A DNA stretch of 35,575 nt, taken from the IMG/VR virus record IMGVR_UViG_2579779007_000007; one strand, written 5' to 3'. This document shows, in pieces, positions 584 to 34,123 of this stretch; the first letter of the stretch is position 1, and the number at the start of each line of letters is the position of its first letter. Made by a program: the position numbers and the translations under genes. Source of the stretch: a virus (lineage: Duplodnaviria; Heunggongvirae; Uroviricota; Caudoviricetes). Below the pieces are notes generated by a model. It was given only the letters and a program-made list of their open reading frames with translations, did not search any database and was not told where the DNA came from.

Positions 584-1363
584 TTACTCTGCGTCTACCA
601 TGTCACATGCAAATTGAGTGTGTTTATATTCAGAATCAAATTTTGGTTCAATTACTTCAAGACGCATGTCACCTTTTTTGCTTACCCAGATGTTATAAGT
701 GTTAACACGTCCAATAGCATCCTGTTTGGATTTACCTTCCATTGCGTTTGGATTCTCTTTAGATGGCTTGAGACTTGATTTATAAACATCATACTTGTCG
801 GAATACACAAAAGATACAGGAACATCGTCTACCATTTTGATCTTAAGTTTACCGCCGTTATTATCAAAAGTTTTGTTTCCGTAGAGTTTATCTTTTACAG
901 CTTCTGTTTCCTCACCATCGATAACTTTCCATGTAAATTTTGTAGTACATGCGTAAATCGCGGTAACATTCAGTTTCTTTACTTCTTCCTGTTTCGGTTG
1001 TTCTTCTTCAATCTTCGCAGAAGTCTCTGAATCGCTCTCTGACGCGGTTTCTTCTTTAGATAATACATTCATCAAGTTTTGGATTTGAGCGTTGTATACA
1101 GCCTCCAGTGGCTGAATCTGCCCGATATTGATCATTGTATCACGAACAGTTTTATTCCAGTTGCGTTGCTCTTGTTTAAGAGACGGATCAATCTTAACAG
1201 CCTTAACATATACTTCATGAAGTTTAGAATCCAGTGCGGAGATTGACTCATTAGCACAAATAAACTTCTCTGATTTGGTTATAGCCTTAGTGCAATCAAA
1301 GGACGCAGCATCAGCACCGAAAGCAGTAGCAGAAAGCACGATAGCAGCGATAATGTTTTTCAT
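584..1363 (-). CDS. secreted protein with N-terminal DUF1311 (LprI-like, lysozyme-inhibitor family) domain and an unknown C-terminal domain
   Basis: 259 aa ORF with signal peptide MKNIIAAIVLSATAFGADAA. Motif C..A.T..E..IC...L..LD..L...Y followed by QR.W...RD is typical of DUF1311. RBS AGAGG upstream. Confidence 0.5.
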   Translation of the reverse strand: MKNIIAAIVLSATAFGADAASFDCTKAITKSEKFICANESISALDSKLHEVYVKAVKIDPSLKQEQRNWNKTVRDTMINIGQIQPLEAVYNAQIQNLMNVLSKEETASESDSETSAKIEEEQPKQEEVKKLNVTAIYACTTKFTWKVIDGEETEAVKDKLYGNKTFDNNGGKLKIKMVDDVPVSFVYSDKYDVYKSSLKPSKENPNAMEGKSKQDAIGRVNTYNIWVSKKGDMRLEVIEPKFDSEYKHTQFACDMVDAE

Positions 1364-1721
1364 TTTATACCTCTTTTGGTATGGACTGACTTTTAGATGC
1401 TTACTTTATTGATTTTTGATATTTTTTCAATTATTGGGATGAGATTTAGTAATTAAATTAAGAAATTAATGCTTGACAAATTAAAAAGGTACTGTTCCAC
1501 GGATGAAATAAAGGGAGTTTTCGGCACCCCGGTATTTGATACGCGTGTGAGATTTTAAAACGTGATCAGTGCAGTCCTAGCGCGGTTGCTACGCGACTAT
1601 TAACCCACTTCCTAGCCCTTACCATTACTGGATCTTTCCCTTCGTTAGAATGCGATTTAGGCGCTTAGATTGTGCGTAAAACCAATAAATAAAATTACGC
1701 AAATTTAATGGAGGATAACCA

Positions 1722-2276
1722 ATGAAAGAAGAATTAACCCTTACAGAAATTTCCCGTTTATACGGCTATTCATTGAATGGTGGCGCTAAGCGATGGATAG
1801 AAAGGGGATTGCCATTTAACACCAATACCCGCCGCGTGCCAGCCAAAGAAGGAACAGAATGGGTCTTGAAAAATATTATCAACCCGCTTAAACAAACTTC
1901 TATCAAAGAACAAATCGATGTAGAGAAATTACGCCGTGAACGTGCTTTGGCAGATGCAGCCGAACGAGAGAACCAGGAAAAAATGAATCTCCTGATTCCT
2001 GTCGGTTATGTAGAACAGGAACTAGCGGAATATTGCGGGAAAGTGAAGCAGACTATTTTGCAGATCGCCACAATTGACGTTTTGGAAGTTCTCGAATCTG
2101 CCACCGACCAGAAAACATTGAAGAACAAATTAAGGGAGATCATCGAGCGTCGTTTAAATGAAGTAGGGGACTTGTTCGAAAATGCTGATTTGGGAGAAGA
2201 CGAGGAAGAAGAATTACCATTAATGGATGAACCGGAAGAAGAACCAGAAGAAGACGATGAATTTGATGTGTCTTAA
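1722..2276 (+). CDS. lambda Nu1-like terminase small subunit (putative)
   Basis: 184 aa. N-terminal winged-HTH-like segment, central EKLRRE..AL.DA segment resembling lambda Nu1, acidic C-terminus. RBS GGAGG. Pairs by family with the gpA-type large terminase at 8493. Confidence 0.5.
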   Translation: MKEELTLTEISRLYGYSLNGGAKRWIERGLPFNTNTRRVPAKEGTEWVLKNIINPLKQTSIKEQIDVEKLRRERALADAAERENQEKMNLLIPVGYVEQELAEYCGKVKQTILQIATIDVLEVLESATDQKTLKNKLREIIERRLNEVGDLFENADLGEDEEEELPLMDEPEEEPEEDDEFDVS

Positions 2277-2327
2277 AATTTCTATACTAAATACATATGT
2301 GAAAGATGTTGAGCTGGTCAACGTCTA

Positions 2328-2363
2328 CGGGGGAGAACATCCCCCGCTTAACCTTTTTCTTAT
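2328..2363 (+). terminator. putative intrinsic terminator after the Nu1-like gene
   Basis: CGGGGG-agaacat-CCCCCG hairpin followed by a T-rich tract that begins 7 nt after the stem. Confidence 0.35.
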
Positions 2364-2377
2364 TTGAGGATTTACCT

Positions 2378-2479
2378 ATGGTTGAATTTTTGATTTATCT
2401 TACTGTAGGATTAACTATCGTATATTCACTGGCACATATTGGCATTTCTGCTGTGTGTAACGCTTTCAAGTATCATTAA
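2378..2479 (+). CDS. small hydrophobic peptide (33 aa, one predicted TM helix)
   Basis: Manual translation MVEFLIYLTVGLTIVYSLAHIGISAVCNAFKYH, with GAGGA about 8 nt upstream. Below the 60-aa ORF-track cutoff. Confidence 0.3.
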   Translation: MVEFLIYLTVGLTIVYSLAHIGISAVCNAFKYH

Positions 2480-2532
2480 TTAAATCGATGAATTGAACTA
2501 TAGATGATGGTCGTGTTCAAAGAGGATTATCT

Positions 2533-2706
2533 ATGGATCTTTTTGTCTACTTTGCTACTCTGCTGTTTTTGACTATCGTCGCTGGCATTAAATTGATTTT
2601 TATATCGCTGGTGGTGTTTTTCAAATTTCTAATCGGTACGCCTTACGGCTGGGTATGCTTCTTTTTGTTTATTCTTTTTAGTTGCTGTAAAAAGGATACT
2701 AAATAA
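2533..2706 (+). CDS. small membrane protein (57 aa, two predicted TM helices)
   Basis: Manual translation MDLFVYFATLLFLTIVAGIKLIFISLVVFFKFLIGTPYGWVCFFLFILFSCCKKDTK, with AGAGGA 7 nt upstream. Confidence 0.35.
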   Translation: MDLFVYFATLLFLTIVAGIKLIFISLVVFFKFLIGTPYGWVCFFLFILFSCCKKDTK

Positions 2707-2864
2707 TAGTGTAATCTGCCTTTTCTCCTTATGGTTATTAACAGGGGATCTTCTTTGAGGATTCCCGATTAAAAGCCATAAAACACACTCCAGTACAGTG
2801 TTTTCATAGTCAGTGATCTATACAACACAAAAACATAACAAGTATAGATTGAGTATTAATCCTC

Positions 2865-2890
2865 CCGCCCCTTCGGGGCGGTTATTTTTC
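2865..2890 (+). terminator. intrinsic terminator
   Basis: CCGCCCC-ttcg-GGGGCGG hairpin followed by TTATTTTT. Confidence 0.6.
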
Positions 2891-2966
2891 TGGCTTTAAA
2901 GAATAATGTAGCATTATGTTCATTATAACCTCATCTTTGTTGTGCAAACCTAACCTAAACTTACTA

Positions 2967-2992
2967 GGGACTCTTCGGAGTCCCTTTTTTTT
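2967..2992 (+). terminator. intrinsic terminator, possibly bidirectional
   Basis: GGGACTC-ttcg-GAGTCCC hairpin followed by eight T. It abuts the stop codon of the minus-strand gene 2991..3233. Confidence 0.6.
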
Positions 2993-3233
2993 ATGCAACA
3001 ATTCGAAGTGTAAGTTTCTTATGTTGTGTAGGTTTAGTTTCATTTCGCCACTCAGGGAATACATGATCCATCATAACCGCATTAGTCTCATCAATCAGCT
3101 TTAAGGACTTTCTCAACGCCTTATTATCAGCTTTAAGAGTTTTAATCTCTGATTCCATCGCTACCATTCTTTCTTTCATTTTGGTAATTTCTAACATCAG
3201 ATTACCCAGAAATTCTTTGTTTTGATTCATCAT
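2991..3233 (-). CDS. hypothetical coiled-coil protein (80 aa)
   Basis: ORF with RBS GAGGGGTGAA. Heptad-rich sequence. Lies 16 nt downstream of the 333-aa gene on the same strand. Confidence 0.45.
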   Translation of the reverse strand: MMNQNKEFLGNLMLEITKMKERMVAMESEIKTLKADNKALRKSLKLIDETNAVMMDHVFPEWRNETKPTQHKKLTLRIVA

Positions 3234-3248
3234 AGATTCACCCCTCTA

Positions 3249-4250
3249 TTAAGCTGCGTATGCGTAGGCGCTGTAGTTGGTGTCGTAGATAGCGTCATGC
3301 AGTGCCATCTGTGCTTCGCGGATCTCGTCTTCGTTTACTTCAATCTCTTCTTGTTCTTCTTCGGTATCTTCCCAAGTGGTTTTGAATTTAGCCATAAAGT
3401 TATTGCGCAGGGATTCAAAGTTAGTAACAGGTGCGGATTTTTCTTCAACCGGAACTACTACCGGATCAGCTTCTTTCTGTTCTTCCTGTTCTACTTTTTC
3501 ACCATTACCCCAGCGATAGTTAAGGAGTTCTTCCAGTTCTTCATCAATGGATTTTTCTTCAACTGCTTCAACTTCAACCGCTGCTACTTCGAAAGTGGTT
3601 TCCTGTGCTGCCAGTTCAGCTTTCAGAGATGCGTTTTCAGCTTCCAGTTCAGCAATGCGTGCTTTCAGTGCTTCAACTTCGGAAGATTCAACCACTGCAA
3701 CTTCTTCTTTAACTTCTTCAACTACTACCGGAGCAACTTCTTTCTGTGCTTCTTTTTTGCAGAAGAAGGAGGAAGTAACCTGTAATGCGTGGTTGTAGAA
3801 GGAACCGCCTTTAGCGGTGTTAACAGTACCAGAAACATCCTTTACAGTGGATTCGGTAGCAACAGTACGGAAGCGTTTTGCGACTTCCTGGGTCTCTACG
3901 CCGTATTCGTTACGCTTGCTCTTGTGATGCATTACAGCACGGAAGCCGGAAGCAGTTTTAACAACAGCCAGATAGTAAGTTTCATCGGCTTTAACAGCAC
4001 GAGCGAAGCAATAAACGGATTCACCTTCTACCAGTGTAGGTTTAACGTGACGTTTGTCGAAACGGTTAGTGATCTGCCATTCAGCACCGTCTTTGATGCC
4101 AGCATTCTGACGCATTTCGGTCAGAGTCTTACCGGATACTACTTCAAAGGATTTGTCTTGTTTGCTTGCTTTACCTTCCATGACGGTAATGTTCAGTTTG
4201 CCGTTGGATTTAATAAACAGGTTGAAGGTGATGCGCTTAGAATTTTTCAT
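3249..4250 (-). CDS. hypothetical protein: N-terminal globular domain, central coiled coil (EALKARIAELEAENASLKAEL), acidic C-terminal region
   Basis: 333 aa ORF with RBS GGAG. Coding-like composition. No family recognised. Confidence 0.6.
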   Translation of the reverse strand: MKNSKRITFNLFIKSNGKLNITVMEGKASKQDKSFEVVSGKTLTEMRQNAGIKDGAEWQITNRFDKRHVKPTLVEGESVYCFARAVKADETYYLAVVKTASGFRAVMHHKSKRNEYGVETQEVAKRFRTVATESTVKDVSGTVNTAKGGSFYNHALQVTSSFFCKKEAQKEVAPVVVEEVKEEVAVVESSEVEALKARIAELEAENASLKAELAAQETTFEVAAVEVEAVEEKSIDEELEELLNYRWGNGEKVEQEEQKEADPVVVPVEEKSAPVTNFESLRNNFMAKFKTTWEDTEEEQEEIEVNEDEIREAQMALHDAIYDTNYSAYAYAA

Positions 4251-4295
4251 TTATAAATACTCCTGAATGCTGTGTTAGTTTTAATTGTTCATATC

Positions 4296-4330
4296 AAAAG
4301 CCTCCTTGCGCCAACAGGGAGGCTTTTTTA
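4296..4330. terminator. bidirectional terminator-like hairpin between the 60-aa and 333-aa genes
   Basis: AAAA-GCCTCC-ttgcgccaacag-GGAGGC-TTTTTT: an A-run before and a T-run after the stem. Confidence 0.4.
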
Positions 4331-4367
4331 TTTTTAAAGCCATCATATAATTCTCAGTGAAAGGTTA

Positions 4368-4550
4368 TTACCAGACCTCGGCGGTAATCTTTACTTTAAT
4401 ATCATACTTCTTTAAGAGTTTGTGGAAGGTTGATTGATCAATACCTTCACCTTTAAACCATTCACCCATCACTACATCAGGTGTCAGTTCAAAATAACGC
4501 TTTGCCATTTCTAAAACGATTTCACGAGTGAACTTAACAGGTCGTGCCAT
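4368..4550 (-). CDS. small HTH DNA-binding protein (60 aa)
   Basis: Strong RBS AGGAGGA. Pattern FTREIVLEMAKRY...GIDQSTFHKLLKKY resembles IS/phage-type HTH. Confidence 0.5.
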   Translation of the reverse strand: MARPVKFTREIVLEMAKRYFELTPDVVMGEWFKGEGIDQSTFHKLLKKYDIKVKITAEVW

Positions 4551-4907
4551 CTTATATCCTCCTAAATCTGGAATAATGATTTCTTAAAAAAGAGCTTTTC
4601 GCTCTGAACAATTCTATTTATAAAATGTTTTTCGAAAAACCCTGTAAAACCACTGTATATCCGATCAGTGGGAGCACGAATTGCTAAAGAGAAGATTAAT
4701 AATTAATCAATTCGTACATTATTCAATCGAATAAGCACTGTATGTTTAGCCAGTTCTGTATGAATTAACAGTGAGTCAGGGGATTTTCAGAAGTGAACAA
4801 TCATTTCATGCATGTATTTATACACGAAAAAATCTTGCGTATCATCAATATGGGGATTGTTTCGAAAATTTCAACCCCTACCAACGAGAAAAAGCATAAA
4901 ATAATCC

Positions 4908-4921
4908 TTGACAGTTGTCAA
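4908..4921. promoter_or_regulatory. palindrome TTGACA-gt-TGTCAA (back-to-back -35-like hexamers or operator)
   Basis: Perfect 6-bp arms. A leftward -10 candidate TATGCT lies 17 bp away on the minus strand, positioned to drive the 4550-to-2991 cassette. Confidence 0.3.
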
Positions 4922-4946
4922 TACACTTGATCTAAGCGAGAAATGA

Positions 4947-4969
4947 CTATCAAAATTTTTGTGTGAAAA
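4947..4969. repeat. direct repeat copy 1: CTATCAAAATTTTTG-TGTGAAAA
   Basis: Near-identical 22-23 bp copy at 5096..5117. A DnaA-box-like TTATCAACC sits between them at 4983..4991. Confidence 0.5.
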
Positions 4970-5095
4970 TGGCGGATAACGATTATCAACCTTTATAACC
5001 TATTATAGCACGGCGACCTTTTGATAATTCTTTTTAAATCATGCATTTACGGCGGTTTTTGGTGATTTTCTGGTTAAATAATATACAAGAATTTT

Positions 5096-5117
5096 CTATC
5101 AAAATTTTTGATGAAAA
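5096..5117. repeat. direct repeat copy 2: CTATCAAAATTTTTG-ATGAAAA
   Basis: See copy 1. This copy directly abuts the iteron array. Confidence 0.5.
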
Positions 5118-5118
5118 A

Positions 5119-5239
5119 CCTACACTACAAACCTACGCTTTAAAGGGATTGGCCTACACTACACTAGCCAGTAAACCTACACTATAACACCCTCAAACCT
5201 ACACTATGAAACCTACACACCTACACTAACCCTACACTT
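5119..5239. repeat. iteron array: about 8 direct copies of CCTACAC(T/G)(A/T) in about 120 bp
   Basis: Copies start at 5119, 5132 (variant), 5153, 5176, 5198, 5212, 5220 and 5231. Several spacings are 21-23 bp. Preceded by an AT-rich tract, inside a 1.27-kb stretch with no ORF of 60 aa or more. Confidence 0.7.
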
Positions 5240-5584
5240 CAATCTCATAAGTGTATGATCTTGAAAGACATTTCACCCCACAGACCATAGAATATAAAAT
5301 TCGAACTAACGTTCTCCTTTTTGCTCGTTTTCTCTCACTACGTTCAAGAAAGATCTCGCAAAAAGAATACGGCGTAGCCGTGCGCGAAGCGCCCATCAAC
5401 ACCTTCTAAGACCTGCAAGCAGGATTCGAAAGGGATTGGATAGTTCGCTTCGCTCACGTTCACGCCTACGGCGTTCACTCGCTTTTGAAAGGATTTTCTT
5501 AGAAAGGGATTTAATACTAGTTACTAACTGATTCTAGTAAACGAACGAAGTGAGTAACAATCACTTTCTAGAAAGGTATTGGTT

Positions 5585-5613
5585 ATCCCTTCGGGATTGC
5601 AACCTTCGGTTGC
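5585..5613 (+). other. two tandem GC-stem hairpins with TTC(G) loops (candidate structured RNA element)
   Basis: ATCCC-ttc-GGGAT immediately followed by GCAACC-ttc-GGTTGC. No clean T-run follows. Confidence 0.35.
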
Positions 5614-5817
5614 TAAATTGCTTCCTGATTATTATTTCTCCAAAAGAAAGATTCTTATATTCTAAAGATACTTCTTCGTTTTGATGATGATTTAATCAAA
5701 CCATGAAGGAGGGCTTTAGCCCGACTGAATACAATCACCTTTCATAATAACAAGAATTTTCTCTTTATAAATAATAGTGAACTTACTTGATTCACTTTCT
5801 TTTAGAGGATTTCCACT

Positions 5818-7540: not shown

Positions 7541-7798
7541 TCAAATTCCTGTTGCTTCTACCATTTCACCATCAACCTGAACAAAGAATTTCAAATCAAC
7601 TTTATGAAGGGATTTGTATAGCTGGGCTATGGATAAGCCATGCTCATTTAATACCCGCTCTTTGTTCTCTTTACCTTTCGGTGCTTGATAGTACGCTTTT
7701 ACAATCGCTGCCAGTTGTTCACGATTAAAACGGGCAGGGCGACCGCGAGTAGCTTTAGTAGTCATAGTCATTTTCTCCAAATTAAAGTGAATGTTCAC
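7541..7798 (-). CDS. small DNA-binding protein (85 aa), HTH-like
   Basis: TRGRPARFNREQLAAIVKAYY...GLSIAQLYKSL pattern. Starts 2 nt after the stop of the upstream 201-aa gene. Confidence 0.5.
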   Translation of the reverse strand: MNIHFNLEKMTMTTKATRGRPARFNREQLAAIVKAYYQAPKGKENKERVLNEHGLSIAQLYKSLHKVDLKFFVQVDGEMVEATGI

Positions 7799-7800
7799 CT

Positions 7801-8406
7801 TTATTTAGAGGACTTACATTTTATCGGAAAAAGTTCTCCATCGTCAACCGACATAAAGAACTCTGCCTTAATCCCGTACTTCTTCAACCGTGAATAATAT
7901 GTACCCCGACTAATATCAACCTTGCGCAGCACTTCGAAGAACTCTTTAGGATTCCTGTAATAGTGGCTATATCGCACGTTAGCGAGTTCTACAAACAATT
8001 CCCTTGTATCACCATAGCCTTTCTTGAAAGCCACGTTACGATAGCGTGTAATGGCATGATTCAATCTCTTCTGTTTAAGCACTTCCCTGATCGGCTTCCA
8101 CTGCAACCGATAGATAGGACCGTCATCAATGCGATAATAACGCTTGATATCAAAATCAAACCAATCTCGGACTCTCCGAAACTCTGTATGTGATGTTCTA
8201 TGCTTCTTAAAGAAGTTGTGAACGTCTCTATAGCCATTATCACGGTAAAATTCTATTAAAATCTCTTTCGCTTCCTCACGGCTAAACCCAGATGTTGTGT
8301 AATCGGTCTTTAAGTGCTTATGTTTTACTGGCAAACGATATTCATGATCGGTACAACAAGACAAGGCTAATTCTACTTCATCTCTTTGTTGCTGATTAAT
8401 TAGCAT
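7801..8406 (-). CDS. hypothetical basic protein (201 aa) with C-terminal HTH-like segment
   Basis: Rich in R/K/Y. C-terminal ISRGTYYSRLKKYG is HTH-like. Divergent from the large terminase gene. Confidence 0.55.
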   Translation of the reverse strand: MLINQQQRDEVELALSCCTDHEYRLPVKHKHLKTDYTTSGFSREEAKEILIEFYRDNGYRDVHNFFKKHRTSHTEFRRVRDWFDFDIKRYYRIDDGPIYRLQWKPIREVLKQKRLNHAITRYRNVAFKKGYGDTRELFVELANVRYSHYYRNPKEFFEVLRKVDISRGTYYSRLKKYGIKAEFFMSVDDGELFPIKCKSSK

Positions 8407-8492: not shown

Positions 8493-10400
8493 ATGAAACT
8501 GATTTCTAATAAGGCAAAATTAAAAAAGATTCTCAGAAATGCAGCCAAATATATTACGCCACCGCCTAAACTCCTTCCATCGGAATGGTGCGAAGCGAAT
8601 CTAACGCTAGTCGATGGTCCTCGTGCTGGGGATAAAGTTAAATTGCTGTCATTTCAGAAAGGCATGATTGATGCTCCTTTCCTTGAGAAGAAAAAGAAGT
8701 ACGTTTTTTGTACGAGTGCGCAGATCGGAAAGACGACCATCATGTCAGGGATCATGTTTAACCAGATGGCAAACGATCCGTGTAATATCATTATCGGGCA
8801 AAGTACCGCTAAAGAAGTGGCTATGTACTTGAATACTAAGATCCGTCCTTCTATTGAAGCATGTCCGGCATTACAGGAAGTGGTAACAGATAAGAATGAT
8901 CGTAATGCGGTAAACAACAATAACCAGATTCAGCTAAAAACAAACCATTTCCTTTACATGGTTTCTTTGACCAGTCCTTCAAGTTTGCGCGGGCGTACTG
9001 CCAAGTTAGGGATTGTAGACGAATGCGACGCAGCAACAATCACCGAAGAAGGTTGCCCGGTGGCACTAACTGCAAACCGTTTAACTACCTTTGGTGATGA
9101 AGCTCGATTGATTGTTTCTAGTACCCCGACCAATAAGCTGGGAATCATTAACCAGCAATGGTTATCAAGTGATATGCGTATGTTTTTTGTTCCGTGTCCT
9201 CATTGCGGGGAACACCAGGTGATCGAGTGGGAAAACGTTCAATTTGAATGGCGTAACATTGATGGTAAGAACTTACCCGATCCTGATACCGCTCGTTATA
9301 TTTGCCCCCACTGTAAGAACGCATGGACAGAAGGGGAACGAATCAGGGCAGTAGCGCAAGGCGAGTGGAGAGCAACCCGTGAAAGTGAAGTAGCAGGATT
9401 CTGGATCAGTCGTCTGTATTCACCTTTCAGCACGATCCGCGCTTGTGTGGTTGATTTTAGTCATGCGTGGCAATCCTTTGATTTACAATCCTTTTTTAAC
9501 ACCGTGTTAGGCAAGGTATACGACGATCAGGACACGGCAGTAGAAGCAAATGAACTGGAACAACTCAAAACAGATGTTTCTATCGAGAATATCCCTGATG
9601 ACGTGATTTTCTTGTGTGCGGGTACTGACCAGCAATTAGATCGCGCAGAAACTACGATCATGGGCGTGGCAAAGGATAAGATTTATATTCTGGATCACCG
9701 CAGCTTTTACGATCATAACTGTGAACGATATGAATCACCTGTATGGGATAGATTAATCAACTTCCATAAAACCAAATTTACTACTGTATCGGGTGATCGT
9801 GTTCCTATGCTCGCCAGCTTCCTTGATACATCGAACGGTCGATTCACTCAAGCTGGATACCGTATTTGCGGCAAGTGGAAGAACTTACACGCTATCAAAG
9901 GTAGTTCTGCTGGTAACGCTCCGATCATTCCGGTTAAACCTACCCGCACAGGTGGTCATGAATTGCTTATGCTGGGCGTTAACGTTGGGAAATCCGCTGT
10001 TCGTGAAATGCTGGTTAGAAACCTGAAAGATAATCCTCATATTGGCTTAGAAATATCAGAAACCATTCCTGATGATTATCTCGATCAGCTTTTGAGTGAA
10101 TCCATCAAGCGTACTACTACTGGCGTGCGTTGGGTGAAAAATCCAGGTAGTACCCGAAACGAGGCTCTCGACTGTCTGGTTTATAGCTATGCTGCTTCTC
10201 GCTACGTTCTTTCAAAAATGTCATGGGATAAACTCATTGCAATGAAAGACAGCTTAAACCGTGTTGTCGAAGAATCCGTAGAAGCTCCTAAATCGCAATC
10301 TGACGAGCAAATCGAAGAAAATAAGCCAATCACACGACCACAACGTAAAAACATCGCCAGACGCCCAAATAGAGGCCGTAGCTGGGTAACATCGTTCTAA
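8493..10400 (+). CDS. terL: terminase large subunit, lambda gpA family
   Basis: 635 aa. Recalled gpA-family blocks: [45 protein letters not shown]. Confidence 0.9.
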
Positions 10401-12534: not shown

Positions 12535-14547
12535 ATGCTTAAATTTCGCCGCGATCTTAACGGTTACGGTGGAGTTATTAATGAAGGGCATAACGATCAA
12601 TACGAATTTGAAATTGCTTTCTCAAGTACACAGCCTTATCAGCGCCAATTTTGGGATGAGCAAAATCAAGAAATGGTGGTATTAGATGAAATTCTGGTAC
12701 ATACACCGGAAGCGGTTGATCTGTCTCGTCTGAATAATAACGCTCCGTTGCTGTTCAATCACAATTTCGATAATCACATTGGTGTAGTTTGTAACGCTCG
12801 AATCGATGCGGATAACGTAGGTCGTGCTCTGGTTAAGTTCTCCAAGCATGGGACTTTGGCTAATGATATTCGTAATAAAGTCATTGAAGGTACGATGGAA
12901 AAAATTTCGGTCGGCTATGACATTAAAGAATATCACATCGACTACACCAAAGGACAATTGATTGTTACTAAGTGGGCACCCTATGAACTCTCATTTGTCA
13001 CCGTTCCCGCAGACGATACGGTCGGTTTAAATCGCTCTCTAAATACTATCACAGTTAATTTGGAGGCTAAACGCGATATGACTAAAGAACAAATCGAAGA
13101 AATCAAAGAAGAACAAGAACCCGCTCAGGTTGAAGAAACTCCGGTAGAAGAAAATAAAGAACCGGAAGTTGAAGAAACTCAAGAGCGCCAAGTTGAAGAG
13201 AATAAAGAAGATGAAAATCTCGAAGACGGAAAAGACGCTGAACATCCTGAAAGTGTTGATGATGATAGTTCAACTGTTCGGGAAACAGAAGAAGTAAAAG
13301 AAGAACGTGAAGCTGCTCCGGTTGAAGAAGAAAAAACCGAGGAAGTGGCTGAACGTTCCGAAGAAGACGAATTAGAAATTCGCGAAATTGCACGCGAGTT
13401 AAATATTAACGAAGACGATGAAGAATTTAAACGCGCATTGGCAAATAAAGAAATTACGCCGGAAGCATTCCGCACTAAGGCACTAAATAACATTACCAAT
13501 GCTCAACGTAATAACGAACAAATTAATAAGGAACAAATCATGGAAAAAACTTTCGATCTTAATAACGTAATCCGCTCCCTGGTAGATGGCGACGTGCTCG
13601 GCGCTAACGAAGCTGAATATTCCGCAATGGCTGCTACTGCAACTATGCAGCGTGGTCGTGCTGCTCGTGGTGGCTCTGTATTCGTTCCGGCTGCTGCTAT
13701 GCGTGCTGCTGCTGATGGCAACACCAAAGCTAATCTGGTTGCTATCACTGACGAAAAACTGATGACTGAATCCTACATCGAAATGCTGATGCCTCAGAGT
13801 GTTTTAGGCCGCCTCGGGGTGACTGTTTATAGTGGCTTGACTTCTCCGACCGCTATTCCAAAAATGACTAAATCCAGCGTTGACGCTTTCGGATTCGTAG
13901 ATGAAAATGGCGCTGCCCCCGAGTCACATGCGGAATTTTCGAACGTGAAACTGTCTCCGAAAACTTTTGCTGGTGGCAACCCGATCAGCCGTCAGTCGCT
14001 GAAAACCGTTCCGGGCATCGCTACCCTGATCACCGATCACATTAACAAATCTGTTCGGATCAAACTGGAACAACTGATTCTGTCTGATAAAGAAAATGCT
14101 CGTGGTCCGGCTGGTCTGGTTAAGCAACTGGTAGACGCTAGCCGCGTTACCAAGAAAGCTGCTTTCTCTTATAAAGATTTCCTCAAGGAGATTGCTCAGC
14201 TTACGGACGCTGGCGTTCCTGCTCAGGCGATCAAGTTTGCGATGAGCGGTGCAACTGCTGCTGAACTGGAATCTACCCTGAAAGATAACGGCGTTTCCGG
14301 TTATATCATCGAAAACGGCAAACTGGCTGGTTACGAAGTAGTTACTTCTGGCGTTATTCCGGCAGATCACATCGTTCTGGGTGACTTCTCCGGTATTACC
14401 ATCGGTGAGTGGGGCGGTCTGGAACTTGACATGGATCTAACTACATATCGGGATCGTGGGGCGGTAGTGCCTAGAATCTTTGTAGATTTGGACTACGTTG
14501 TAGCACAGCCGGAAGCGCTGAAAGTTCTTCACATCTCCGCTGACTGA
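12535..14547 (+). CDS. fused prohead protease (HK97/S78-like) - acidic scaffold-like linker - HK97-fold major capsid protein
   Basis: 670 aa. Residues 1-170 match the S78 prohead protease pattern, residues about 180-330 are E-rich, the C-terminal 340 aa are HK97-MCP-like. Ends with TGA. Confidence 0.8.
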   Translation: MLKFRRDLNGYGGVINEGHNDQYEFEIAFSSTQPYQRQFWDEQNQEMVVLDEILVHTPEAVDLSRLNNNAPLLFNHNFDNHIGVVCNARIDADNVGRALVKFSKHGTLANDIRNKVIEGTMEKISVGYDIKEYHIDYTKGQLIVTKWAPYELSFVTVPADDTVGLNRSLNTITVNLEAKRDMTKEQIEEIKEEQEPAQVEETPVEENKEPEVEETQERQVEENKEDENLEDGKDAEHPESVDDDSSTVRETEEVKEEREAAPVEEEKTEEVAERSEEDELEIREIARELNINEDDEEFKRALANKEITPEAFRTKALNNITNAQRNNEQINKEQIMEKTFDLNNVIRSLVDGDVLGANEAEYSAMAATATMQRGRAARGGSVFVPAAAMRAAADGNTKANLVAITDEKLMTESYIEMLMPQSVLGRLGVTVYSGLTSPTAIPKMTKSSVDAFGFVDENGAAPESHAEFSNVKLSPKTFAGGNPISRQSLKTVPGIATLITDHINKSVRIKLEQLILSDKENARGPAGLVKQLVDASRVTKKAAFSYKDFLKEIAQLTDAGVPAQAIKFAMSGATAAELESTLKDNGVSGYIIENGKLAGYEVVTSGVIPADHIVLGDFSGITIGEWGGLELDMDLTTYRDRGAVVPRIFVDLDYVVAQPEALKVLHISAD

Positions 14548-16364: not shown

Positions 16365-19300
16365 ATGCAATCAATCCAATTTAAACGCACACAAACGGCT
16401 GGTAAAAAGCCGACGCCGGAACAATTATCACAGGGTGAGATCGCCTTACAACTGGCGGACCATGTGATTTACACCAAAGACAAAAATAATAACGTAGTCC
16501 AAATTAGTGTTTCTCCAGAAAAACACGCTGAACTTAACACTAAAGTAGACAATAACAAAACTAGCACTGACCGTGTTATTGCTTCCAACAAACAAGAGGC
16601 CGCTAATAATCTGGCTAGTGCTAAAGCTGAACTGAATCAGACTATTACCACGAAAGATACAGCGACCAATAAGCGCATTGATGCTACCAACACCACTGTT
16701 AGTAACTTAACCCAGACAGTTACGGCAAATAAAACCGATGCCGACACTAAGATCAATAACCTTACGGGGACCGTATCTGCGAATAAGACCGCAATTGAAA
16801 GAACCGTTGCCGCAAACAAATCTGATGCAGATAGCAAACATGCAGCTTTAACGAAAACGGTCACTGACAATAACACCGCGATTAACAACAAGGTTAATAC
16901 CACTAACACCAACGTTAGCAACTTAACTAAAACTGTTACTGCAAATAAAACCGATGCAGATAACAAAATTTCTAGCTTAACTAGCGCGGTTGCAGCTAAC
17001 AAGACAGCGATCGAAAAGACTGTTTCCGACAATAAGAAAGACGCGGATACTAAGATTACCAATCTTACTGGCACTGTTAATAGCAACCATACCGCAATTA
17101 ACAACAAGGTAGACCAGAATAAATCTTCTACTGATGCCGCAATTGCAGCCGCTAACAAACGAATTGATGGTATTGAAGGTAGCAATGATGCTCTTTACAT
17201 CAAGAAGAATACCAATACTAAGCATGGTGGGTATCTGTTAAGCAAGACAGCTAACTATCTGGAAGACCAGACATCACGAGATCTTAACTACTTTGGTGCT
17301 TTCCGTACCAATGGTCAAGATGGACTCATGGATCTAACTCTTAACGTTCCTCACTCTTCCGGTAAAGCGCACGGTCGCGGATTTACTTTCCGTTATGCGT
17401 CTGGTGGATCTCGTGTTGAAACCTATGGTTTTGATAGAGAAGGACAGAAGAACTTTAGCTATAAGATGTATCACGAAGGTGATAAACCGACTCCTGCTGA
17501 AATTGGCGCATATACCAAAGGCGAAATTGATAAGATGTTTATTAAAAATGTCACAATGTCTGTTCCTTCTGGTAGTGAATCCCGTGCTTATTTCAAGATT
17601 GCTACGGCTACGATCCCACAAAATGGTCGTATGGTAATGCTTCGTATCTTCGGTGGTAATGGTTATAACGTTAACTCCTATGATCAGGTTGATTTCCTTG
17701 AAATTGTTATCCGTAGTGGTAACGATAGACCTAAAGGTGTTAGTGTTGCTGCATATCGTCGAAATGCTCTTAACGTTCATCAAGTATTTGCGGTTAATAC
17801 TTCCGGTGATAACTACGACATTTACGTTAACTACGGTCGTTATACTGATAACGTTATTGTCGAATATGGTAAGACTAGCGGTGTTTCACTGACTGTTCAT
17901 GACACCCCAGATATGACTAACGTTAAGCCGTCTACTGGTGTTACAGATGGACGTGTTATTACAATGTTCAATACCGAAAACAAGGCCGGAACGTTGATGT
18001 TTGATAATAACGGTCAGGGAACATATGATATTGTCAGTTTGAATAACGATTCAGGTACTGGTAAAAAATATCTGCGTAAATTCCGTAGTAAAGCCGCAGA
18101 AACAATCTGGCATGAAACTGTTCAAGGTAACGTATATCGTTTAGCGACTGGCACTACCGATTCTAGCGAAGTTCTACGAATCACTGGTCGCACTATGTAT
18201 ACTGGTAAAGCTGTTTTTGATGCCGGATCTAATACTATTCGTATGCAGCGACCGAATGGTCAAAGTAACTATTTGGAATATTGGGATAACCGTAACGGTG
18301 CAAATAAACGTCAAGGTTGGATCGGTTATGGAAATGCCGATACTAACGCTATGCAGATGTATAACGATAGCGGTACTAACAATATTGGCTTAGAACAAAG
18401 CGGTCAAATCTCTCTGAATACTGGATCTACTAAAGTAGTTTATACCAACGGCGAGTATGTATCTGCTAACTCAAATGCATTCCGTATGATTTACGGTAAC
18501 TATGGTGCATTCTGGCGTAATGATGGTCAAAACGTATATTTTCTGTCTACTGCCGAAAATGATAAATTTGGTGGTTGGAACGGCTATCGTCCATTCATTT
18601 ACAATCTGGGTAGCGGTAATGTTACTTTGGGTGGTGATGGTAACGAAGGTGCATTAGTCTTAGAACGTGCAAGTCGTGCAGCTCGTTTTGCTGGAAACGC
18701 TTTCATCAAAGGTCAACATTTAACACTTGATGCTGGTGCTGGACAATCCCGCGACTATTTCCGTTTTAACCATTGGGGTGATAGCAATAACGCTCGCGAC
18801 AACATTCTATATCTCGAAGACAGCAAAGGACGCCATTTCAGCACCGAACGTAATATGGCTACAGGTGCATTAAAAGCATACTTCTTAGGAGATCTTGAAG
18901 TTGCTGGTCAAATGCGATGGGGTAAGAATACCGGACAATCTAGCTTCAATATTCGTGCATGGGGTAATGATACTCGTAAACAAGTATTAGAATGCGCAGA
19001 TGAAAGCGGCTGGCATTTCTACACACAGCGTGCTGGCGGTCCTGATACTACCGCAATCGAGTTTAGCGTAAACGGTAAAATTAACGCTCCCCGACTGTCT
19101 ATTAGTCAGGATGCAACCATTCCTAAGTTTAATAGCGGTTTTGGTGTTGGTGTTGCTAACGGATTGGGTGGAAATTCTATTGTTTTAGGCGATAGTGATA
19201 CTGGATTTAAACAAAACGGTGATGGTGTCCTTGATACCTACGCTAATAACGTTAATGTTGTTCGCCATACGTCAGGCGGTGTTACATTTAACCGTCGTGT

Positions 19301-19973
19301 TGTTGTTGCTAACAAAAATGGTTTAGGTTATTCCGATATCTCTGATGTAACTCGTGACCGTGCTCCATTCCTGGTTAACATGGATAGTATTAAGGGGTCT
19401 GCTGCATATTTCCCGATCATCGCTGGTTACAGTAACTTAGGTGATGTTGGTTATCGTCAGTCCTTCGAGTTTGGTTGGACGGGTAGCGGGTCGAATAGCA
19501 CATGGCGTACTGGTATTATCCGTATGCGTGGCGATAACGCCAACGGGCAGCAAGCACGCTGGGAATTTACTATGGATGGTGATTTTACCTGCCCCCGTAA
19601 CGGTAGCTTTAACGATGTTTACATTCGCTCTGACTCCCGTTTGAAGATTAACAAGGAAGAATTACAGGACGGCGCATTAGAGAAAGTAAACTCCCTGAAA
19701 GTCTACACCTACGATAAAGTTAAATCTCTTTCAGATGACACAGTGGTTAAACGCGAAGTAGGTATTATTGCTCAGGATCTGGAAGAAGTGTTGCCGGAAG
19801 CAGTAGGTATTCAATCCACCGAAGATCCAGAACAACCGGAAGCAATTAAGACTATTTCTAACTCTGCTGTTAATGCCTTGATTATTAAAGCGATTCAGGA
19901 AATGGACGCCAAATATCAAGCTAAGATTGAAGCATTGACTAAAGAGATTGCCGAACTCAAAGCAACTAAATAA
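16365..19973 (+). CDS. long tail fibre with C-terminal S74 intramolecular-chaperone domain
   Basis: 1202 aa. Repetitive shaft, KPTPAEIGAY motif, C-terminal YIRSDSRLKINKEEL... matching the autoproteolytic chaperone domain of T5 pb1 and endosialidase-type fibres. Confidence 0.85.
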   Translation: MQSIQFKRTQTAGKKPTPEQLSQGEIALQLADHVIYTKDKNNNVVQISVSPEKHAELNTKVDNNKTSTDRVIASNKQEAANNLASAKAELNQTITTKDTATNKRIDATNTTVSNLTQTVTANKTDADTKINNLTGTVSANKTAIERTVAANKSDADSKHAALTKTVTDNNTAINNKVNTTNTNVSNLTKTVTANKTDADNKISSLTSAVAANKTAIEKTVSDNKKDADTKITNLTGTVNSNHTAINNKVDQNKSSTDAAIAAANKRIDGIEGSNDALYIKKNTNTKHGGYLLSKTANYLEDQTSRDLNYFGAFRTNGQDGLMDLTLNVPHSSGKAHGRGFTFRYASGGSRVETYGFDREGQKNFSYKMYHEGDKPTPAEIGAYTKGEIDKMFIKNVTMSVPSGSESRAYFKIATATIPQNGRMVMLRIFGGNGYNVNSYDQVDFLEIVIRSGNDRPKGVSVAAYRRNALNVHQVFAVNTSGDNYDIYVNYGRYTDNVIVEYGKTSGVSLTVHDTPDMTNVKPSTGVTDGRVITMFNTENKAGTLMFDNNGQGTYDIVSLNNDSGTGKKYLRKFRSKAAETIWHETVQGNVYRLATGTTDSSEVLRITGRTMYTGKAVFDAGSNTIRMQRPNGQSNYLEYWDNRNGANKRQGWIGYGNADTNAMQMYNDSGTNNIGLEQSGQISLNTGSTKVVYTNGEYVSANSNAFRMIYGNYGAFWRNDGQNVYFLSTAENDKFGGWNGYRPFIYNLGSGNVTLGGDGNEGALVLERASRAARFAGNAFIKGQHLTLDAGAGQSRDYFRFNHWGDSNNARDNILYLEDSKGRHFSTERNMATGALKAYFLGDLEVAGQMRWGKNTGQSSFNIRAWGNDTRKQVLECADESGWHFYTQRAGGPDTTAIEFSVNGKINAPRLSISQDATIPKFNSGFGVGVANGLGGNSIVLGDSDTGFKQNGDGVLDTYANNVNVVRHTSGGVTFNRRVVVANKNGLGYSDISDVTRDRAPFLVNMDSIKGSAAYFPIIAGYSNLGDVGYRQSFEFGWTGSGSNSTWRTGIIRMRGDNANGQQARWEFTMDGDFTCPRNGSFNDVYIRSDSRLKINKEELQDGALEKVNSLKVYTYDKVKSLSDDTVVKREVGIIAQDLEEVLPEAVGIQSTEDPEQPEAIKTISNSAVNALIIKAIQEMDAKYQAKIEALTKEIAELKATK
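16640..17170 (+). repeat. intragenic tandem repeats encoding two ~69-aa shaft repeats
   Basis: Repeated NLT.TVTANKTDAD.KI..LT..V.ANKTAIE.TV. The low-complexity repeats create the spurious antisense ORF 16637..17185. Confidence 0.6.
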
Positions 19974-29958: not shown

Positions 29959-30237
29959 ATGACTGAAATTATATATGGCGGTATCGGTGTTATCGCCTTA
30001 ATTTGCGGTGGTCTTTGGAGACTTCACCGAAATCAATTAGCAACTGAAAATAGATTGTCGAAATTGGAATCCAGCGACGCATTGTTAAACCAGAAGTTTG
30101 AGACGATGCAGAATAACCATACTCAGATTGCTGAACGTGTTTACCAAATGGAACAAACACTACACGGTATAGAGAAGAAAGTGGTTGCGATGGACGCCAA
30201 ATTTGACCAAGTTCTCGACATACTCAAACAAAAATAA
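29959..30237 (+). CDS. membrane protein with N-terminal TM helix and coiled coil (holin- or i-spanin-like)
   Basis: 92 aa: IIYGGIGVIALICGGLW followed by a heptad-rich region. RBS GGGGG. Confidence 0.5.
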   Translation: MTEIIYGGIGVIALICGGLWRLHRNQLATENRLSKLESSDALLNQKFETMQNNHTQIAERVYQMEQTLHGIEKKVVAMDAKFDQVLDILKQK

Positions 30238-30255: not shown

Positions 30256-30426
30256 ATGAAGAATAAACTTAAGAAATATTTTGGTTATCTCTTGATTGTC
30301 GCCCTCACTTATAACGTAGCTATTAGACCTCTGCTAACGTCCTTTGGGCTTGAACTCCCGGCTATGACCGTGGATGAACAATTGCTAAGGACACTGGCGG
30401 GGGTCTTTTCGTTATTAGGGGGCTAA
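30256..30426 (+). CDS. small membrane protein (56 aa), holin-like candidate
   Basis: Manual translation MKNKLKKYFGYLLIVALTYNVAIRPLL... RBS AGGGGTG. Stop is 1 nt before the next start. Confidence 0.4.
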   Translation: MKNKLKKYFGYLLIVALTYNVAIRPLLTSFGLELPAMTVDEQLLRTLAGVFSLLGG

Positions 30427-31506: not shown

Positions 31507-31860
31507 ATGTTAAGCAAACATTTTTCTCGCAAGGAATTTAAATGTAAATGCGGAAAATGTGATTATGATACAATCGACGCTGAATTACTGGTAATTCTTG
31601 AGGATGTACGAGAGCACTTCGGTAAACCAGTGATTATTAACAGTGGCAACCGTTGCCCGACTCATAACAAGAATGTAGGCGGGGCAGCCAATAGCTATCA
31701 CGTTCGAGGCCGTGCGGCTGACATTGTTATCAAGGGTGTCTCACCTGATATTGTTCATGCTTATCTTGATGGGAAATATCCTACTCAATACGGCTTAGGA
31801 AAATATAAAACATTTACGCATATCGATTCCAGATCAAAAAAATCACGGTGGAATGGATAA
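31507..31860 (+). CDS. peptidase M15-family peptidoglycan peptidase (putative endolysin)
   Basis: 117 aa. SYHVRGRAADI and a downstream His match the M15 zinc-peptidase H..G.A.D pattern, the class that includes T5-type endolysins. Confidence 0.65.
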   Translation: MLSKHFSRKEFKCKCGKCDYDTIDAELLVILEDVREHFGKPVIINSGNRCPTHNKNVGGAANSYHVRGRAADIVIKGVSPDIVHAYLDGKYPTQYGLGKYKTFTHIDSRSKKSRWNG

Positions 31861-32394: not shown

Positions 32395-34074
32395 TTAAAT
32401 TCCAAATTCTTGTAATGGACCTGGTATTTCTTCTTCTGGTTTCCAGTTCTTATCTGTCAGCATGTCTAAACATGGATGCAGAACAAGCCCGTTACTCTCC
32501 AGAATCTGCCTATCATTGATAGTCTTCAAATCAACGAAGATCCGGCCTTTCCTCGGTCCTCTTGAATTTTCTATTACAACTCTCTGGGTCTTGCCATCGA
32601 TGTATTCCAGTACAAACAAGTTTTTGTACTTGTCAATCCTGCTACACCCGATCCGTTTTAGAGCTTGCTTAATCTTAAACCGGACCTTAATGCGATCCTC
32701 GTTGTAAACATCTTCTAAATCAAATTCTGCGAGCTTCTCCCAGCCTTGAGAGTCAACAGAATACATTTCCTCTTCTGCCATCTTAAGTTGATTGTAGAGT
32801 GTTTCACGCTCGCTATTGAGGGTAGTAATCTGATCGGCTAGCTCCTTCGTTGCTCCTGTCATAGCAGAAAGGGTAATCAGGTTATCAATCTTGCGTGATA
32901 TTTCATCAATCTGTACTTTCAAAGCCGGAACCGGATTAGCCTTATCTTCAGCAATCCAGATTTTATCAGCCAGCAATTGCAATACAGCTTTCTCTAATTG
33001 GTCGCCGCGAAAACTCCAGTTTGTATGCACACATTCAATACGACTAGAGCGCATTGCATCGCATGAATAACGATATTGGTTAGGCCGTCTGTTTGTTCCT
33101 TTCACCTTAACCATAGCGGAACCGCAATGTTCACATTTCAATAGACCAACACCACTAAGCAAGGGAATAGGTTTAGCTTCTTCTTTGTCTCCAAAGTTAC
33201 ATGCTCTAACACCAATGCTTTTCTTAAGGTGATAAAACTCAGCGTCATCTAGCACACGAGGATAATAATCCTTTAACTCATACTTAACGCCATCTACAGA
33301 GATTTCCTTGATACCAATCAAAGCGCGGGTATGGAACAACCTTTCAATCATTGCCCGTGACCAGTTTGAATGCCTCTTGTGACTTGCGGCTGGTGGTGGT
33401 GTGTATGTCGCGTTAAGGTGATCCAGTATCTCGGCGGTTGACCGTCCATTCCTGCGTAATTCCACAACTTCCTGAACAATAGGGAAGAAGACCGGATGAG
33501 GAAGCACATAACCAGATGTGGTATCAGTCCACCACATATTCTTTCCAATTTCCTCGATTGCAACAGCCGGATTTTGTGGATTTTCTTGATGAGCTTTAAT
33601 CTTAATCAGTGCGCTTGAGTTAGTACGATTGCGCTTAGTCTGGCTTTCCTCATTACCACGGATGAATAAAAGGATGGAGAACATCAGGTCCATCGGGTTA
33701 GCGGTAACAGTATCAAGCGAGTAGATCTTGTTATCCATGCCAGTAACAATGGTTATCCCCCTACGGATGATTGAAAGGAATAACTCCTGCGCACTGACAA
33801 TATCGGCACGGGATAAACGGTCCAAGTTTTCGATGAATAGCCAGCTACCAACAGGAACGGATCTACCTATTGCATCAAGGAAACGAGATAGCGCCCCTGT
33901 TTTGGAGTTAGCACCCTTAAACGCAGATACACCCAGATCCTGATAATCATTTACCAGTTCAAGGTCATACTTTACCGCAATCTCTCTAGCCATCCTGATT
34001 TGTCGTTCATAACTCGAACCATCATTCTGACGCATAGACGAGAAGCGAATATACGAATACAGTTTAGTTTTCAT
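32395..34074 (-). CDS. large serine recombinase (candidate integrase)
   Basis: About 560 aa. N-terminal resolvase-type motif YIRFSSMRQ, recombinase domain, zinc-ribbon cysteines (CEHCGSAM...YRYSC), C-terminal coiled coil. ATG start at 34074; the ORF track uses a TTG at 34089. Confidence 0.85.
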   Translation of the reverse strand: MKTKLYSYIRFSSMRQNDGSSYERQIRMAREIAVKYDLELVNDYQDLGVSAFKGANSKTGALSRFLDAIGRSVPVGSWLFIENLDRLSRADIVSAQELFLSIIRRGITIVTGMDNKIYSLDTVTANPMDLMFSILLFIRGNEESQTKRNRTNSSALIKIKAHQENPQNPAVAIEEIGKNMWWTDTTSGYVLPHPVFFPIVQEVVELRRNGRSTAEILDHLNATYTPPPAASHKRHSNWSRAMIERLFHTRALIGIKEISVDGVKYELKDYYPRVLDDAEFYHLKKSIGVRACNFGDKEEAKPIPLLSGVGLLKCEHCGSAMVKVKGTNRRPNQYRYSCDAMRSSRIECVHTNWSFRGDQLEKAVLQLLADKIWIAEDKANPVPALKVQIDEISRKIDNLITLSAMTGATKELADQITTLNSERETLYNQLKMAEEEMYSVDSQGWEKLAEFDLEDVYNEDRIKVRFKIKQALKRIGCSRIDKYKNLFVLEYIDGKTQRVVIENSRGPRKGRIFVDLKTINDRQILESNGLVLHPCLDMLTDKNWKPEEEIPGPLQEFGI

Positions 34075-34081
34075 ACCATTT

Positions 34082-34123
34082 CCAAACAAAAACGCCCCTA
34101 CCGCGTATTATAACGATAGGGGC
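34082..34123 (-). terminator. minus-strand terminator upstream of the recombinase
   Basis: On the minus strand: GCCCCTATCG-loop-CGGTAGGGGC followed by GUUUUUGUUUGG. The loop contains TATAAT. Confidence 0.4.

Follow-up and report, generated by a model that had tools for sequence, protein, structure and literature searches.

The region downstream of terS

The subject of this work is a short interval in a temperate prophage of about 35.2 kb in Escherichia coli. The prophage is contained in IMG/VR record IMGVR_UViG_2579779007_000007, a stretch of 35,575 nucleotides (nt) that is hereafter called the window and is 100% identical to NZ_CP028733.1. Directly downstream of terS, the gene for the small terminase subunit, and on the same strand, two very small hydrophobic open reading frames (ORFs), referred to here as ORF-A and ORF-B, are followed by a long 3' untranslated region (3'UTR) and two terminators. 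An earlier note on this DNA had described two hydrophobic ORFs of 33 aa, with one transmembrane (TM) segment, and 57 aa, with two, each preceded by a Shine-Dalgarno (SD) sequence, and this description holds: GAGGA lies 6-7 nt upstream of each start, and the grand average of hydropathy is 1.22 for ORF-A and 1.56 for ORF-B. That note had missed three things: the position directly after terS, the allelic and modular character of the slot that the ORFs occupy, and the conserved structure of the long 3'UTR. The features of the interval, with hairpins Ha and Hb taken from the minimum free energy (MFE) fold, are as follows.

1722..2276, plus strand: terS, Nu1-like small terminase, 184 aa (PHROG phrog_57 'terminase small subunit', E 1.5e-11, residues 2-169)
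2304..2326, plus strand: hairpin Ha (AGAUGUUGA-GCUGG-UCAACGUCU), just past the terS stop
2328..2346, plus strand: GC-rich hairpin Hb (CGGGGGA-GAACA-UCCCCCG), followed by a delayed, variable U-rich tract
2366..2370, plus strand: SD sequence GAGGA of ORF-A, 7 nt before the ATG
2378..2479, plus strand: ORF-A, 33 aa, MVEFLIYLTVGLTIVYSLAHIGISAVCNAFKYH, ATG at 2378 and stop at 2477-2479; a single hydrophobic stretch, predicted TM helix
2480..2532, plus strand: ORF-B leader with SD sequence GAGGA at 2522-2526, 6 nt before the ATG; varies less than any other segment of the region
2533..2706, plus strand: ORF-B, 57 aa, MDLFVYFATLLFLTIVAGIKLIFISLVVFFKFLIGTPYGWVCFFLFILFSCCKKDTK; two hydrophobic stretches, predicted helical hairpin, basic C-terminus KKDTK
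2737..2773, plus strand: 3'UTR hairpin H1 (RNAalifold consensus, 7 of 14 pairs changed on both sides)
2800..2811, plus strand: conserved unpaired motif GTTTTCATAGTC between H1 and H2 (from the alignment)
2815..2850, plus strand: 3'UTR hairpin H2, 9-bp stem and 18-nt A-rich loop (from per-sequence folds)
2865..2891, plus strand: intrinsic terminator T1, stem 2865-2881 with 7 G-C pairs, then TTATTTTTCT
2946..2960, plus strand: two AAACCTA(A/C) boxes between T1 and T2, sharing their motif with the iteron array at 5116-5237
2966..2993, plus strand: intrinsic terminator T2, stem 2966-2985 with 8 pairs, then T8
2991..3233, minus strand: convergent gene for an 80-aa coiled-coil protein, the last of a leftward operon with 3249..4250 (333 aa) and 4368..4550 (60 aa)

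The two hydrophobic stretches of ORF-B are divided by the turn GTPYGW, and in its AlphaFold2 model (mean predicted local distance difference test score, pLDDT, 80) they correspond to helices 2-35 and 37-55, with a break at the Pro-Tyr-Gly-Trp turn. According to the positive-inside rule, ORF-A is probably oriented N-out/C-in and ORF-B N-in/C-in. The GC content of the cassette formed by the two ORFs is 0.32-0.35, compared to 0.42 for terS and 41.5% for the whole element. An identical ORF-B sequence can be found on at least 1000 public contigs, those of the pathogenic E. coli lineages O55:H7, O121:H19 and O145:H28 among them. Public collections label all of the small proteins discussed here just 'hypothetical', 'uncharacterised' or 'putative membrane protein', with ORF-A carried as 'Uncharacterised protein'.

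Evidence that ORF-A and ORF-B are genes

Within E. coli, we compared 14 distinct sequences (haplotypes) from IMG/VR, and both frames are open in 14/14 of them. Synonymous changes account for 8 of the 11 substitutions in ORF-A (3 being nonsynonymous) and for 12 of the 22 in ORF-B, where random change would lead one to expect a fraction of 0.22-0.23 (binomial p ~7e-4 and ~8e-4, respectively), and this excess is absent from the two other reading frames. The leader of ORF-B contains only 2 variable sites in 53 nt.

More distant prophages were fetched via homologues of TerS. In two Salmonella prophages (L045/L046), whose TerS is ~70% identical, homologues of both ORFs are present in swapped order, B then A, each with its own leader and SD sequence. 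The Salmonella ORF-B homologue has 60 aa (MFEFIFLV...FPGWIILL...GKGNKGKRNK) and is preceded by a recognisable version of the E. coli ORF-B leader, and the ORF-A homologue has 33 aa (MFDFLIYLTGLLTVSYLVSYIVIKFICHFLFNK). Calibration against shuffles that preserve composition gives z 9.4 for the ORF-A pair (0/2000 shuffles as good) and z 3.1 for the ORF-B pair (13/2000). Both genes have a dN/dS ratio of about 0.55, with the strongest conservation at the second codon position, on which hydrophobicity depends. The TTTGAGGAT box is retained ahead of the ORF-A homologues in Salmonella and in L049, and the 32-aa ORF-A-like peptide that a metagenomic relative carries alone lies behind this box. A phmmer search with ORF-B against 1.84 billion representatives found only ORF-B itself, and the protein is lineage-restricted. 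The earlier note had named the absence of conservation in related elements, together with a lack of translation, as what would refute it; the ORFs are conserved and under purifying selection. On these comparative grounds we conclude that ORF-A and ORF-B are real genes, predicted to encode very small inner-membrane proteins.

A contrary interpretation is that the ORFs are incidental, and that what matters in this interval are the RNA or DNA signals (Ha/Hb, H1/H2, T1/T2 and the AAACCTA boxes), serving terS expression, packaging or convergent termination. The NCBI annotation pipeline PGAP leaves both ORFs unannotated in the identical genome, and between genera the mean column identity of the 3' region (64%) exceeds the amino-acid identity of ORF-A (39%) and ORF-B (28%). 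However, the synonymous excess within E. coli speaks against this interpretation, and so do the Salmonella homologues, which keep ORF length, SD sequence and hydrophobic character despite the swapped order, as well as the presence of an SD-preceded hydrophobic ORF in this position in every relative examined. We therefore regard it as very unlikely that the ORFs are incidental.

An exchangeable slot after the terminase gene

The sequences that flank the small ORFs (2288-2356 and 2698-2991) are 90-97% identical among the IMG/VR relatives. They enclose either A+B, in a cassette of 341 bp, or an unrelated cassette of 292 bp that codes for one 94-aa protein (MATFITYAV...FVFKQTK). Across terS variants of 88-97% identity the two alleles occur intermingled, which shows that they are exchanged by recombination. 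The family of the 94-aa protein also includes members of 92 aa (in L065 and L091) and of 93 and 95 aa (in L054, L048 and L053), and in Proteus the gene in the slot encodes an unrelated protein of 74 aa with two helices and a long basic loop. Altogether, at least five distinct cassette contents are found between the conserved flanks: A+B, B+A, A alone, a three-helix protein of 92-95 aa, and the 74-aa protein; in none of the relatives examined is the slot without an SD-preceded hydrophobic ORF. With the exception of the Proteus gene, nearly all cassettes end in ...[T/N/S]K followed by TAAATAAT, which places the right-hand junction of the slot at the stop codon. Thus, the slot is modular, with the hairpins Ha/Hb after terS as its left border and with TAAATAAT, followed by H1, H2 and T1, as its right border, and each exchangeable cassette consists of a leader, an SD sequence and a small hydrophobic ORF.

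The AlphaFold2 model of the 94-aa protein (pLDDT 65) comprises three helices (2-21, 26-64 and 66-92), for which the positive-inside rule suggests an N-out/C-in orientation. If the topologies derived in this way are correct, the A+B pair reproduces the three-helix arrangement of the single 92-95 aa protein, and ORF-A and ORF-B probably act together in the membrane.

The terS/ORF-A interval is also the site of an insertion: in one relative (L010/L036, IMGVR_UViG_2877285697_000006) a gene for an IS4-family transposase of 413 aa (1778..3019 of that record) is located in the loop of Hb, at approximately 2333-2338 of the window.

Structured RNA and terminators

Ha and Hb are both present in all relatives, as compensatory or inverted variants. 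For Ha, a compensatory change GTTG/CAAC to GGTG/CACC distinguishes the two Salmonella sequences (L045 vs L046), and Hb is kept as a hairpin in all relatives with both stem and loop changed. Owing to its delayed and variable U-rich tract, Hb looks like a leaky terminator, and we consider it a candidate attenuator between terS and the small ORFs.

The evidence for structure is strongest downstream of ORF-B. In an 11-sequence alignment, H1, T1 and T2 together are paired in 94.7% of cells, vs 82.7% after shuffling and at most 61% in slid controls, and 16 of their pairs are changed on both sides, a number reached in 0/500 shuffles. H2 is found at the same place in 11/11 sequences with at least five different stems, and its G.U pairs fit only the plus-strand RNA; its support comes from folds of single sequences rather than from pair counts in the alignment. 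As judged by H1, H2 and the covariation, the 160 nt from ORF-B to T1 are a conserved structured RNA. A search of 2250..3050 against Rfam 15 yielded no match at gathering thresholds, merely sub-threshold chance matches at E<=10, and a pattern scan of IMG/VR for the 3'UTR motif recovered the same lineage and otherwise about as many matches as expected by chance.

The two strong terminators in a row that had been proposed at 2865..2890 and 2967..2992 are genuine, and those coordinates are right to within 1-2 nt: the stems of T1 and T2 are conserved with compensatory changes in E. coli, Salmonella, Proteus and metagenomic relatives. A scan of 3 kb detected five terminator-like sites, against 2.5 +/- 1.7 expected. 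The idea that the small ORFs are insulated by these tandem terminators captures only part of the arrangement: T1 ends the terS/small-ORF unit, and T2 marks a convergent junction, lying 5 nt past the stop codon (2991-2993) of the 80-aa gene, with a T-run that overlaps this codon.

Such a layout recalls the sRNAs (small regulatory RNAs) of enterobacteria that derive from 3'UTRs or lie close to terminators, with stem-loops, a conserved unpaired 12-mer and a GC-rich terminator hairpin with a U-tail, all on the mRNA strand past the stop codon. Unlike those sRNAs, the candidate described here belongs to no Rfam family and has no target that we could find. In particular, GTTTTCATAGTC was considered as an sRNA seed and rejected, since among the start regions of the window complementarity to it is neither enriched nor convincing, and neither a target nor an ORF could be assigned to it.

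Another possibility is that the cassettes encode toxin-like membrane peptides, of type I or in the style of GhoT/OrtT, whose synthesis would be checked by the structured 3'UTR, a derived sRNA or antisense read-through from the convergent operon, and which would act in abortive infection or in maintaining the prophage. Their length, extreme hydrophobicity and association with structured RNA and mobile elements are shared with type I toxins (Hok, TisB, Ldr, Zor) and with GhoT/OrtT (57 aa, 2 TM): the peptides of 33-60 aa are phage-borne and extremely hydrophobic, ORF-A and ORF-B, with 33 and 57 aa, fall within the type I size range (under ~60 aa), and the conserved structured RNA and terminator follow directly downstream on the same strand. 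Moreover, only ~285 nt remain to the end of the convergent operon, and on the minus strand T2 has no good U-tract. Both SD boxes (GAGGATT) are complementary to an invariant TCCTCCC at 2860-2866, which leads into T1. However, in the MFE fold of 2277-2892 TCCTCCC remains unpaired with either SD box, and GAGGATT is not enriched in the window, so we rejected anti-SD pairing as the control. The sole promoter-like site on the antisense strand (2624..2596) has 9/12 matches, no better than chance, is not conserved and was likewise rejected; no antisense partner was detected. Searches of Pfam and NCBIfam gave no match to the Hok/Gef, Ldr, TisB, Ibs, ShoB, Zor, DinQ or GhoT/OrtT models, and the alleles of 92-95 aa exceed the typical size of a type I toxin. 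Taken together, we consider a toxin-like function unlikely.

Short motifs of a different kind surround T2. In the ORF-poor segment of 1.2 kb at 4570-5800 there are seven direct AAACCTACAC repeats (the iterons at 5116-5237), and the motif also occurs at 2946-2960 (plus strand), 3008-3035 (minus strand) and 4034-4043 (minus strand); the copies that flank T2 are in inverted orientation. If up to one mismatch is allowed, the window contains 21 matches where 8.35 would be expected (0/100 shuffles). The motif is only partly conserved in relatives. The AAACCTACAC array may be an origin or a set of sites for a phage DNA-binding protein.

Possible functions of the cassette

None of the alleles (ORF-A, ORF-B, and the proteins of 94, 60, 33 and 74 aa) matched any model in Pfam, PHROGs, NCBIfam or PADLOC, defence families included, and for holin families Pfam, PHROGs and NCBIfam gave nothing even at E<=10. 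Foldseek searches of BFVD with the two AlphaFold2 models (ORF-B and the 94-aa protein) returned nothing significant. In the absence of family matches, the mechanism is inferred from anatomy alone. The earlier note had listed superinfection exclusion, injection blocking, type I toxicity and holin/antiholin action as typical roles of such peptides; none is demonstrated, given that there is no family match and no credible antisense partner, that the ORFs are not beside the endolysin gene, and that no promoter of their own was found.

A core role in the virion or in replication seems unlikely for the cassette. Its low GC content, its own terminator, its restriction to one lineage, the rapid allelic replacement and the one relative with a 32-aa peptide alone point to an accessory role. 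The reading that we favour, though tentatively, is that it provides a moron-like inner-membrane function in conflicts between phages, namely superinfection exclusion by blocking DNA entry. Exclusion of this type is exerted by Imm of phage T4. According to this scenario, transcription would reach the ORFs by passing through the leaky hairpin Hb, or would start weakly at the TATAAATA box, which is conserved as TATAAATA(C) after the terS stop in most relatives; ORF-A and ORF-B would each be translated from their own SD sequence; transcription would stop at T1, with T2 as a backup that also closes the convergent leftward operon; and the two proteins would act in the inner membrane to block the entry of DNA, as HK97 gp15 and T4 Imm do. 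Morons have been defined, and the small inner-membrane exclusion protein gp15 of HK97 described as a precedent, in PMC3594210. As in morons, the unit described here has its own terminator (T1, backed by T2), a deviant base composition and a content that varies among related phages, so that the likeness to gp15 comprises a small prophage inner-membrane protein, an add-on unit with a terminator, deviant GC and variability among relatives (PMC3594210). However, gp15, a homologue of YebO, belongs to the tail operon and has been shown to have its own promoter (PMC3594210), whereas the cassette follows terS, no promoter was found for it, and it has neither homologues outside its lineage nor sequence similarity to gp15.

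Several results weigh against exclusion as the function. No similarity to known exclusion proteins was found in either sequence or fold. Between terS and the small ORFs, no sigma-70 consensus promoter with at least 9/12 matches is consistently present across relatives; without a promoter of their own the ORFs may be late genes, which would not suit a factor that protects the lysogen. The view that A+B is the 94-aa protein in split form received no significant support from BLASTP, shuffle-calibrated Smith-Waterman alignment or hhalign, and their relationship is an analogy of topology and position only. Finally, no holin has been firmly identified elsewhere in the phage, which leaves room for a role in lysis; near the endolysin, no protein matches a holin family.

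The latter constitutes the main rival explanation. Here, the part of the holin would fall to ORF-B (class II-like) or to the 94-aa allele (class I-like), and that of an antiholin or co-holin to ORF-A; all would be expressed late with terS, and the inner membrane would be permeabilised for a soluble M15 endolysin. We regard this as possible but doubtful. The genes relevant to it are the following.

29959..30237: 92-aa protein with an N-terminal TM segment and a coiled coil, between the tail-tip gene and the endolysin
30256..30426: 56-aa membrane protein, between the tail-tip gene and the endolysin
31507..31860: endolysin, M15 peptidase, without signal or signal-arrest-release (SAR) sequence

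Lambdoid phages carry non-homologous holins at one position, a situation that the alleles of the slot parallel: S-lambda (class I, 3 TM) and S21 (class II, 2 TM) are, like the proteins of 57-95 aa described here, non-homologous small membrane proteins at a single genomic position. An endolysin without signal or SAR sequence needs a holin, the small ORFs adjoin terS on the same strand with no promoter of their own found, and the tail of the Salmonella ORF-B homologue, GKGNKGKRNK, is strongly basic. The sizes and topologies, oriented by the positive-inside rule only, fit class I (3 TM, N-out/C-in) and class II (2 TM, N-in/C-in) holins as defined in PMC9636201, and two-protein holin sets consisting of a 2-TM and a 1-TM protein offer a precedent for A+B (PMC13056207). 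However, unlike the lambdoid holins, the ORFs (2378..2706) are not beside the endolysin gene and remain ~5 kb from it even in the excised circle, with opposite-strand genes between; neither has a second in-frame start near the N-terminus, and hence there is no dual-start motif; and in E. coli the charged C-terminal tail is very short. The lack of any holin family match also speaks against this explanation, and so does the occurrence of a 32-aa single-helix peptide alone in one relative and of an unrelated 74-aa protein in Proteus, neither of which would be expected of an essential holin. Moreover, there is no co-variation between the type of cassette and the endolysin or the genes around it: the endolysin of the window recurs in a prophage that carries the 94-aa allele, and the 92-aa and 56-aa membrane-protein genes upstream of the endolysin are conserved with both types of allele. 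These two proteins, for which no family match was obtained, are themselves candidate holin or spanin components.

It is tempting to consider a more radical variant, in which the three-helix protein and the split one-helix and two-helix chains, in either order, are a single unit coupled to a structured RNA (H1, GUUUUCAUAGUC, H2, T1) that would control their synthesis or act in trans as a phage sRNA. Attached to a packaging gene, such a unit would be a module not described before, and might serve as an RNA-gated, membrane-disrupting lysis clock or as a toxin for prophage maintenance or abortive infection. We consider this variant quite improbable, below the toxin-like function discussed above.

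Whichever function applies, the cassettes represent new families of small membrane proteins next to a new candidate phage RNA motif, both of a general kind that is already known. Small membrane proteins are systematically missed in annotation. Here, natural alleles (A+B, B+A, A alone and a protein of fused size) occur in near-identical flanks, the swap of gene order included, which makes their function directly testable with respect to exclusion, lysis timing and toxicity, and the covarying 3'UTR is the candidate motif. If the function turns out to be ordinary, the value of these results will lie mainly in better annotation of an uncharacterised prophage lineage of Enterobacterales.

The prophage and its other genes

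The element is a temperate siphophage with lambda-like packaging, integrated in hicB, a host antitoxin gene of E. coli: the window begins in the 5' part of hicB (40-351), and the 3' part lies beyond the window end (past 35575). The region was found in 64 of 5426 complete E. coli genomes. Searches against 50,697 phage records, by megablast and blastn with positions 1700-4400 and by tblastn with TerS and ORF-B, gave nothing useful, and the closest phage match of the large terminase TerL is merely 42.7% identical, placing the element, by sequence comparison, far from every sequenced phage. A literature search on hicB-integrated prophages gave nothing relevant. Some homologues of terS are named terminase small subunit by PGAP. 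Two further genes define the element:

8493..10400: gpA-like large terminase, 6 kb further on from terS
32395..34089, minus strand: large serine recombinase, which integrates the prophage into hicB

Close relatives with a related serine recombinase are inserted in ycdX, beside ghrA (L055), and carry other cargo near the integrase, e.g. a DEAD/DEAH helicase. Upstream of terS, at 1570-1700, the palindromic CGCGGTTGCTACGCG is accompanied by three TTAGA(A/T)TG(C/T)GCG-like repeats, a layout that appears to recall cosN-cosB ahead of Nu1 in lambda. At the left end of the prophage, divergent from terS, 584..1363 (minus strand) encodes a protein of the LprI (lysozyme inhibitor) family (phrog_14799, E 8.5e-114; Pfam LprI above cutoff).

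No repressor or replication genes are recognisable anywhere in the element. The products of 4368..4550, 7541..7798 and 7801..8406, all on the minus strand, have in common an N- or C-terminal module R-G/A-RP-x-(K/R)F-(T/N)RE and look, from their sequences, like paralogous DNA-binding proteins. Among the structural genes, 12535..14547 encodes a 670-aa head protein that matches 'major head and protease' PHROGs, suggesting a fused protease-capsid gene, and a 1202-aa homologue of the T4-like long tail fibre (16365..19973) is encoded between two major-tail-protein-like genes.

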